Below, in pieces: positions 37,747 through 38,649 of a stretch of 64,000 bases of DNA. Source of the DNA: an uncultured Candidatus Saccharibacteria bacterium (lineage in GTDB: Bacteria > Patescibacteriota > Minisyncoccia > Phycocordibacterales > EsbW-18); contig CAZFMQ010000002.1 in the NCBI GenBank assembly GCA_964520295.1, positions 50,379-114,378 on the forward strand, in the 5' to 3' direction. The notes under the pieces were generated by a model. It searched no databases and was not told the origin of the DNA. It saw only the letters and a list, made by a program, of their open reading frames with translations. Every line of letters begins with the position of its first letter. Position 1 is the stretch's first letter. The position numbers and the translations under genes were made by a program.

Positions 37747-38649
37747 TTACTGGTGTTGCTTTTGAGAGAGCAACGTAATTGCCTTCGTAATCAGCGGTAG
37801 AATATCGTCGTAAATGTTGAGGTTTACAATTTCACCGAGACGGAACCATCGTGCATCATCTAAACCGCCTGACGAACCGAGGTGCAAATCACGGAATGGT
37901 GCTTCTGCAAGGAAGTAGGTAACGCGCTTGCGTATCTTTCCCTTCTCGGGATGCGACGCAATGTACTCATTACTACCAATTTCATCTTGCAAGGTAATGT
38001 CCAGCCCTAATTCTTTGTGTATCTCGCGCACCGTACCTGTACGCACATCTTCCTTTTCTTCTATGCGCCCTTTGGAAAGAGTCCAGTGTCCGAAGACGTC
38101 ATGCACAAACGCGATATAAATATCGTCTTCATGACGAGCGTACACGACCGCGCCGCCCAACACCTCTTGTGGCATTTCTTCATACGGCACCTCTTTCTTT
38201 CGTTTTGATGTCTCGTTCTTGCCTGGCTCTCCCAATTCTTTATATACAGAGCCAAGTACACCGTTGACGAAACGACCCGATGAGTCACCACCAAAACTTT
38301 TCGCAAGTTCAATAGCTTCATTAATGGCAACTTTTGCAGGTACATTTGCACGGTCACCGAACAAAAGTTCAAAGAGACCGAGACGTAATACGTTGCGGTC
38401 TACAAGCGAAATTTTCTCCAGCGGCCATTCAGGTGCCGCTTTGACAATAATAGTGTCAATATCTTTTCGCTTCTCAATAACCCCTTTCAAGAGTGATCTC
38501 ATAAATTCTCCTTCATTGATGCCGTGTGCGTATTCGTCGGCAACATGAGAAAGGATACCGTCTGCTTCTTTTGAAGAAACGGGAGAAAAATCAATCTGGA
38601 AAAGTGTCTGAAGAACAACTGATCTCGCTAGGTGGCGATTACTCATCAT
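37747..38649 (-). CDS. nusB: NusB-Nudix fusion protein (N-terminal transcription antitermination factor NusB, C-terminal Nudix hydrolase)
   Basis: Residues about 1-150: [33 protein letters not shown] is nearly identical to the NusB core. Residues about 190-300 carry the Nudix box [30 protein letters not shown] (Gx5Ex7REUxEExGU). Confidence 0.75.
   Translation of the reverse strand: [300 protein letters not shown]

Follow-up and report, generated by a model that had tools for sequence, protein, structure and literature searches.

NusB fused to a Nudix-fold module of Ap4A-hydrolase type in Parcubacteria: a recurring architecture in which pocket-aligned residues outlast the catalytic ones

The stretch of DNA analysed here (64,000 nucleotides, henceforth the window) is a housekeeping region carrying rpoB/C, rpoD, dnaG, trmD, dnaE, thrS and the gene for RNase R. 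Its minus strand also holds a single continuous open reading frame (ORF), henceforth nusB::nudix, which starts with ATG, encodes 300 residues and ends with the stop codon at positions 37747-37749 (Table 1). An earlier note on this DNA, made from the letters alone, had described this ORF as a fusion of the transcription factor NusB with a Nudix hydrolase domain and proposed a domain search as a check. Both peptides quoted in that note are present in the ORF, and the predicted protein exceeds the curated cutoffs of two Pfam families: NusB (PF01029) at residues 8-137 (E 1.9e-31, 109.7 bits versus a cutoff of 23.1) and NUDIX (PF00293) at residues 186-277 (E 4.9e-10, 40 bits versus a cutoff of 21.1). 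Not one stop codon or frameshift lies between the two domains. With an uninterrupted frame and an architecture that recurs in relatives, the fusion is genuine.

That recurrence is extensive. We searched a collection of 5.8 billion proteins and inspected the best 120 matches, all of which carry both Pfam domains within 288-324 residues, at 63-100% identity to the query. These matches stem from NCBI, JGI, ENA and Logan assemblies, many of them independent, and those assigned to a named lineage (Campbellbacteria, Wolfebacteria, Pacebacteria, Taylorbacteria and Parcubacteria) are annotated as plain 'NusB', a database name that hides the Nudix extension. When one genome per GTDB species was scanned, at least 595 species-level genomes proved to encode a relative, the best 80 of those kept matching nearly the whole query. 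All named lineages with the fusion fall within the Parcubacteria group of Patescibacteria. When the Nudix half alone served as query in an exhaustive HMMER search, the fused architecture was seen to persist down to about 30% identity in that half. We consider the chance that two adjacent genes were merged by a sequencing or assembly error to be negligible, since the same ORF occurs in hundreds of independent assemblies and the junction motif between the domains is conserved. No naturally split pair of nusB and nudix genes was confirmed among the relatives examined. Close matches that look like stand-alone Nudix genes (e.g. P0128) were tried as split genes and rejected, being fusions cut by contig ends with rnc still downstream. 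As a separate observation, many third-party-annotation metagenome-assembled genomes with a Parcubacteria-type locus (L002, L003, L006 and others) are titled 'uncultured Candidatus Saccharibacteria', a label that is probably generic or wrong.

The N-terminal half resembles NusB in sequence and in predicted fold. It passes the NCBIfam nusB equivalog model TIGR01951 with 123.2 bits (cutoff 88.35). In an AlphaFold2 model of the fusion, run on an 80-sequence alignment, two confident domains are seen (mean predicted local distance difference test score, pLDDT, 85; predicted template-modelling score, pTM, 0.54), the first of which consists of seven helices spanning residues 2-139. Foldseek matches this half to NusB of Thermotoga maritima (1tzv, 39% identity, template-modelling score TMt 0.81) and of Aquifex (3r2d, TMt 0.88). 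The positions by which Escherichia coli NusB contacts boxA RNA, namely F122, E81, the helix K101-E106 and an N-terminal Arg motif (PMC3177189), align with F127, D84, K106-E111 and R5/R9 of the fusion. F127 is invariant (entropy 0) and D84 invariant or nearly so in the 223 distinct fused proteins that serve as our comparison set throughout. By homology, then, the N-terminal half is the lineage's genuine NusB, a predicted boxA-RNA- and S10-binding factor. No rRNA gene is present in the 64-kb window or in the 88 loci that we fetched, and 13-mers resembling boxA (two mismatches) occur only at scattered positions in the window and loci, a result we judged uninformative, the chance expectation not having been computed.

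Between the two domains lies a tether of variable length (7-37 residues across the family), rich in Lys and Glu and with a net charge of about zero. It opens with the conserved junction motif GEPGK, of which G140, E141 and P142 do not vary among close family members, and its residues 142-152 are disordered in the AlphaFold2 model (pLDDT below 50). The orientation of the NusB and Nudix halves relative to each other is not fixed in that model, in line with its pTM. We also considered that an internal start at M159 may yield a free Nudix protein, as the window copy has a Shine-Dalgarno-like GAGGTG 12 nt upstream of this codon; the corresponding residues differ in the family consensus and the candidate was set aside.

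What kind of Nudix domain is it? The earlier note had pointed to RppH and NudC, and hence to a catalytic role at RNA 5' ends, an assignment that the comparison with solved proteins does not bear out. Residues 161-299 adopt the beta/alpha/beta Nudix fold in the AlphaFold2 model, for which Foldseek returns Aquifex aq_158 (TMt 0.90) and Thermus Ndx1 (TMt 0.87). A family profile run against the PDB likewise ranks hydrolases of diadenosine tetraphosphate (Ap4A) and other diadenosine polyphosphates (ApnA) first: aq_158 (E 7e-19), Chlamydia CT771 (1e-15), Ndx1 (8e-13) and human NUDT2 (5e-12), with Dcp2 following (8e-10). The Caenorhabditis elegans Ap4A hydrolase and Mycobacterium tuberculosis Rv2985/MutT1 are also among the nearest solved proteins. 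BdRppH is distant by both measures (profile E 5e-5, TMt 0.63), and the RppH equivalog model NF001936 reaches 19.7 bits against a cutoff of 118. For NudC, the NCBIfam matches include no model and Foldseek gives a TMt of 0.35 (5iw5); moreover, what sits N-terminal to the Nudix fold is NusB and not the extra N-terminal domain and zinc motif of the NudC-type architecture. Because the nearest solved proteins by sequence, fold and profile are ApnA hydrolases and the RppH model falls far below its cutoff, we conclude that the Nudix half is of the Ap4A/ApnA-hydrolase type and is neither RppH nor NudC. Weak matches of this half to ribosomal protein uL1 (L1P) vanish when the family profile is used and were dismissed as chance.

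Several other Nudix proteins surfaced in these searches. The closest genuine stand-alone relative, P0154 (locus L088, 5001-5453; 150 residues, 38% identity), has a perfect box, and its neighbours (an integrase, a DNA methylase and genes resembling those for phage replication proteins) suggest a phage or mobile element. P0195 (291 residues) comprises two Nudix-like stretches without NusB, and P0247 (577 residues) has Nudix-like stretches flanking a NusB-like segment on both sides; either could be another architecture or a gene-call error.

In its catalytic residues, the window copy departs from the consensus of its family. A complete Nudix box had been reported for the ORF in the earlier note. 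The box of the window copy reads G194-x5-E200-x7-R208-E209-I-H-K212-E213-L-G215-L, in which K212 replaces the first Glu of the 'EE' pair of GX5EX7REUXEEXGU. This lysine is private to the window genome (P0001 is identical) and has an independent origin in P0022; the nearest relatives (P0002-P0004, 83-89% identity) have Glu at position 212, and the consensus box of the fused family is canonical. Hydrolytic activity of the window copy, judged from E212K, is doubtful.

For the family at large, the fused proteins were set against 16 relatives that genuinely stand alone (134-160 residues). The catalytic quintet E200/R208/E209/E212/E213 is intact in 114 of the 223 fused proteins versus all 16 stand-alone ones (Fisher p = 3.9e-5), the latter being a small set found by similarity to the query and so slightly biased to box-containing matches. 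The 'RE' Glu at position 209 is non-acidic in 95 fused proteins, and E213 is nearly invariant (217/223). Absence of the conserved catalytic Glu residues had been named beforehand as an outcome that would count against the proposal of a Nudix enzyme, and it materialised in part: one box Glu is missing from the window copy and 109 of the 223 fused proteins lack at least one residue of the quintet, but about half of the family is intact.

These losses did not occur once. Minimum changes per site were counted on a neighbour-joining tree built without the catalytic columns (Table 1), and this tree requires boxes to have switched at least 46 times independently between the canonical and the non-canonical state. 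What replaces the residues at the metal-site positions is in most cases a small or hydrophobic residue (72) or a basic one (56), often Lys. The Nudix half is nonetheless not decaying where position 209 lacks an acidic residue: in these 95 members the ratio of Nudix to NusB divergence is 1.16, versus 1.09 in canonical members.

These data bear directly on one reading of the fusion, in essence that of the earlier note, in which the Nudix half acts enzymatically on RNA 5' ends, either as a pyrophosphohydrolase like RppH or by decapping dinucleoside-tetraphosphate (Np4A) or nicotinamide adenine dinucleotide (NAD) ends, and is brought by NusB to nascent rRNA or mRNA so that 5' ends are processed or surveyed co-transcriptionally. 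The canonical consensus, the full quintet in 114 members and the near-invariance of E213 speak for it, as do the place of Dcp2 among the better profile matches and the RNA-related neighbours rnc, rpmF and rnhB. The closest human homologue, NUDT2, hydrolyses 5'-triphosphate RNA and caps (PMC9283932). Set against this are the 'RE' Glu, which corresponds to the E58A site of the human Ap4A hydrolase mutant 4ijx and evolves like an unconstrained site, the repeated loss of E200, R208 and E212, and the K212 of the window copy. In addition, members with a dead box retain both the domain and its operon position, and RppH itself is far removed in score and structure. As an account of the family we find this reading unlikely; for lineages with a canonical box, an active co-transcriptional 5'-end enzyme is plausible.

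Reduced genomes of the candidate phyla radiation (CPR) often carry gene fusions, and the two halves could be independent, a house-cleaning Ap4A or nucleoside triphosphate hydrolase having been joined to NusB in a reduced genome for co-expression. The flexible linker and the lack of a fixed inter-domain contact in the model would agree with such a fusion of convenience, as would the stand-alone relatives, which look like ordinary enzymes and, in the case of P0240, sit in a metabolic gene context. The fusion is, however, kept in at least 595 species and across great divergence of its Nudix half, with no confirmed split, and a house-cleaning enzyme would be expected to keep the catalytic residues that here decay under purifying selection on the domain. 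We regard independent halves as very unlikely, because the Nudix half is retained without its catalytic residues.

What has been retained in their place is a set of residues aligned to the ligand site. In human and Plasmodium Ap4A hydrolases, His, Lys42, Tyr82 and Lys89 bind the P1 phosphate, and the adenine is stacked by Tyr82 and Phe128 and hydrogen-bonded by Glu130 (PMC4734340). In the alignment, these ligand-site positions fall on H188 (followed by W189), K193, Y229, K241, Y280 and D282 of the fusion. W189, K193, Y229, K241, Y280 and D282 are almost invariant in the fused family and are common to the stand-alone enzymes, and they change far less often on the tree than the median site of the Nudix half (Table 1 gives counts for all but D282). 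The pocket is also kept where position 209 is non-acidic, with W189 present in all 95 such members, K193 in 94, Y280 in 93 and Y229 and D282 in 91 each. This pattern suggests that what selection preserves is the set of residues aligned with the nucleotide pocket rather than the metal site. At the level of the family, the catalytic residues are dispensable while the fold and the pocket-aligned residues are under selection; the window copy itself represents one change only. Catalysis would be optional and binding conserved, because the pocket-aligned residues are frozen while the box residues drift.

The Nudix half of the fusion is also strongly acidic (mean net charge -7 and isoelectric point about 5, versus a mean net charge of -1.6 in the stand-alone relatives) and contains conserved loops specific to the fused family (HPEKGK at 233-238, GGLDD at 261-265 and YDDILP..TKA at 280-290). 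Such features, together with the GEPGK junction and the dispensable catalytic residues, could be those of an acidic protein-protein adaptor that, like SuhB or the acidic repeats of NusA, docks NusB on RNA polymerase, S10/S4 or NusA where the usual accessory factors are lacking, the 'pocket' being kept for fold or interface. SuhB offers a precedent of an enzyme fold integrating NusB/E into the rrn complex (PMC6614801). The most frozen residues, however, align with nucleotide contacts of Ap4A hydrolases and are shared with stand-alone enzymes, as would be expected of a ligand pocket rather than of a new interface, and no partner was identified. An adaptor role is, in our estimate, quite unlikely.

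The genomic context of the fusion is highly conserved (Table 1). The earlier note had placed the gene downstream of rnc. It actually lies upstream of it on the minus strand, with the rnc ATG at 37743 and a gap of 3 nt. The RNA-processing cluster proposed there is otherwise upheld in the form of a same-strand string of RNA-related genes, rnhB, rpmF, nusB::nudix and rnc, that is conserved in relatives. Of 80 related loci, 79 have rnc after the fusion on the same strand (median gap about 39 nt) and 76 have rpmF in front of it; rnhB and a divergently oriented dnaE come still further upstream, and the downstream side usually carries a short smc. The string of rnhB, nusB::nudix and rnc survives even in P0241, a fused member of great divergence whose box is fully degenerate and in which ftsH takes the place of smc. 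The 64-kb window contains no second NusB or Nudix gene.

Table 1. Features of the nusB::nudix locus (window positions) and minimum number of changes at sites of the Nudix half on the neighbour-joining tree
Feature	Positions	Strand	Basis or remark	Minimum changes
rnhB (RNase HII)	39038..39643	-	Pfam/NCBIfam; first gene of the conserved same-strand string, dnaE divergent	
rpmF (ribosomal protein L32)	38705..38986	-	TIGR01031 match; upstream neighbour	
nusB::nudix, complete ORF	37747..38649	-	ORF list, Pfam and NCBIfam domains, recurring architecture	
NusB domain, residues 1-139	38233..38649	-	all-helical; PF01029, TIGR01951, AlphaFold2, Foldseek	
Linker, residues 140-160	38170..38232	-	GEPGK junction motif, then K/E-rich variable-length tether	
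Nudix-fold domain, residues 161-300	37750..38169	-	Ap4A/ApnA-hydrolase type; PF00293, AlphaFold2, Foldseek, profile versus PDB	
Nudix box, residues 194-216	38002..38070	-	family consensus canonical; window copy has K212	
Codon AAA (K212)	38014..38016	-	Glu in the canonical box; one transition from GAA	
rnc (RNase III)	37054..37743	-	TIGR02191, 255 bits; directly downstream, 3-nt gap	
E209 ('RE' Glu)				at least 64
Median site in Nudix half				37
E212				at least 36
E200				at least 28
R208				at least 28
K241				at least 9
E213				at least 6
Y229				at least 4
K193, Y245, Y280				at least 2 each
W268				at least 1
W189				0

Taking these data together, we see the protein as NusB plus an accessory domain, a Nudix fold that appears to be drifting toward a pseudo-enzyme. 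The reading that we favour, tentatively and at just short of an even chance, is that of a genuine NusB carrying a flexibly tethered Nudix module of ApnA-hydrolase descent, whose conserved role would be ligand binding, with hydrolysis optional. The module would bind a ligand of the adenine-nucleotide-polyphosphate type in its pocket and would not necessarily hydrolyse it. NusB would dock on boxA in the nascent leader, and the module at the end of the tether would add a second grip or read-out at the transcription complex, its candidate targets being a (p)ppA or Np4A-capped 5' terminus on that boxA transcript, or a free signal nucleotide of the ApnA or ATP type. According to one proposal, the rRNA antitermination complex keeps the leader close to the RNA exit and thereby allows its 5' and 3' flanks to pair (PMC6614801), and binding by the Nudix module could stabilise or tune such a complex until the RNase III processing stem forms. 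This last step fits the position of the gene directly upstream of rnc, with which it is probably translationally coupled and might share a role in pre-rRNA handling. Slow hydrolysis may occur in the lineages with an intact box, about half of the family. A link of the fusion to RNA 5' ends, as first envisaged, is possible, more likely via binding than via obligatory hydrolysis.

Several points weigh against this favoured reading. The intact half of the family includes the closest relatives of the window gene, whose boxes are perfect, and E213 is kept almost throughout, so catalysis may matter in many lineages. The E212K change is a single private transition that may or may not affect activity, and it could even be a sequencing error in the source assembly. 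The correspondence of Tyr82 with Y229 rests on gapped MAFFT and profile alignments; an ungapped pairwise HMMER alignment puts Tyr82 at H233. The acidity of the Nudix half would argue against broad RNA binding and would fit a protein-protein role equally well. Finally, the identity of the ligand, be it a 5' end or a free nucleotide, is pure inference on our part.

Carried one step further, the proposal of a binding module becomes that of a 'reader': Parcubacteria would have built into NusB a Nudix pseudo-enzyme that senses the 5' end of the transcript (ppp, pp or an Np4A cap) or an ApnA-type alarmone and couples this signal to NusB/S10-boxA assembly and RNase III processing. We consider this possible and, on balance, somewhat unlikely. 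If true, such a reader on NusB would feed regulation into rRNA synthesis by a route not known from the model bacteria. NusB is otherwise a single-domain core factor of bacterial rRNA transcription and ribosome biogenesis, and an additional domain borne permanently across a superphylum of ultra-small uncultured bacteria implies that rRNA transcription or processing is wired unlike the E. coli model. Our full-text literature searches, including those on Patescibacteria, Parcubacteria and CPR, found no published description of a NusB-Nudix protein. With its frozen pocket and decaying catalytic residues, the family would offer a clean natural example of an enzyme becoming a binding module, and it raises the testable question of which nucleotide or RNA end is bound, with what effect on antitermination and RNase III processing.

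Other features of the window deserve mention. Downstream of rnc lies an SMC homologue of 765 residues (34225-36522, minus strand) with Pfam SMC_N at residues 2-750 and no hinge domain found; the SMC match is about 2.2-2.4 kb long in most related loci, and a short SMC seems typical of the lineage. Within the 531-nt gap between rnc and smc (36523-37053, minus strand) are a match to a sigma-70-like promoter (37046-17), a strong terminator-like hairpin of 13 bp followed by a T run (36595-36566) and an ORF of 143 residues without a Pfam family (36607-37038). Neither protein nor DNA similarity to this gap was found in 80 related loci, and an Rfam scan of it gave nothing meaningful (CcsR1, 25 bits versus a gathering cutoff of 65). 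Elsewhere, an ORF at 46362-47189 (minus strand) is unusual in coupling an ATP-cone at its N-terminus to a restriction endonuclease domain of Mrr type. A B12-dependent ribonucleotide reductase with an ATP-cone (4897-7772, plus strand) is directly followed by a cobalamin adenosyltransferase. A bacterial SET-domain protein of 152 residues is encoded at 52099-52557 (plus strand), and an ORF of the ResIII helicase/nuclease type adjoins an N6/N4 DNA methylase at 55164-59475 (minus strand), likely a type III-like restriction-modification pair. The longest ORF for ribosomal protein S16 (30762-31523, minus strand) spans 253 residues with the S16 domain at residues 91-148, so that either the start lies further in or S16 bears extensions; in locus L085, S16 is called at 174 residues.

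How does the fusion compare with known systems? Like the NusB proteins of E. coli, T. maritima and Aquifex aeolicus, which act with S10 (NusE) on boxA RNA, it has the equivalog score, the helical fold and the aligned boxA residues, with 39% identity to the T. maritima protein. It differs by its C-terminal addition of some 160 residues of linker and Nudix domain, the matched solved NusB chains being 139-156 residues long and without any extension. A second comparison is with RsmB/Sun, the 16S rRNA m5C967 methyltransferase, in which an RNA-binding domain of NusB fold is likewise fused N-terminally to an enzyme fold, one that acts on rRNA; indeed, NCBIfam RsmB models match residues 8-153 of the fusion. 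RsmB, however, combines a diverged NusB-like targeting domain with a methyltransferase, whereas here a true NusB equivalog is joined to a Nudix fold.

On the Nudix side, RppH and NudC share the superfamily fold, and a link of the fusion to RNA 5' ends is conceivable. Catalysis by RppH depends on glutamates (PMC9283932) that are not conserved in the fused family. The ApnA hydrolases (aq_158, CT771, Ndx1, NUDT2 and Rv2985/MutT1) are nearer, being the best matches in sequence and fold and sharing the HWxxPKG-like motif (HWTLSKG in the fusion) as well as the aligned counterparts of the stacking Tyr, of Lys89 and of Phe128/Glu130. They are stand-alone proteins, apart from MutT1 with its fused histidine phosphatase, and their boxes are intact; the Nudix half of the fusion is instead attached to NusB and more acidic, and box residues have been lost from about half of its family, including the first 'EE' Glu in the window copy.

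Two further comparisons concern function. SuhB, an enzyme fold that helps to integrate NusB/E into the E. coli rRNA antitermination complex, is an accessory subunit stabilising NusB/E on the rrn leader (PMC6614801); it differs in being a separate polypeptide of an unrelated fold, inositol monophosphatase. For the Nudix module itself, NrtR and AraR are among the fold and profile matches.

Together with the eukaryotic RNA-associated proteins CFIm25/NUDT21 and Syndesmos/NUDT16L1, these two sensors form a group of Nudix folds that are missing catalytic Glu. The relation to CFIm25 is one of analogy without specific homology: no CFIm25 chain occurs among the PDB matches at E<=1 with the single sequence, among the best 60 of 80 at E<=0.01 with the profile, or in the top 50 of Foldseek. 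Catalytic loss in the fused family is, moreover, partial and lineage-dependent and not fixed. As in the fusion that we propose, the members of this group bind a nucleotide (Ap4A, ADP-ribose) or RNA without hydrolysis, and they work inside an RNA-processing or regulatory complex (PMC2425470, PMC6294507). Syndesmos is described as an RNA-binding protein and came up when catalytically inactive Nudix folds were looked for (PMC6294507). CFIm25 has a Nudix fold without two of the catalytic Glu residues, binds Ap4A with a dissociation constant of 2.4 uM, does not hydrolyse it and serves as the RNA-binding subunit of a processing complex (PMC2425470).

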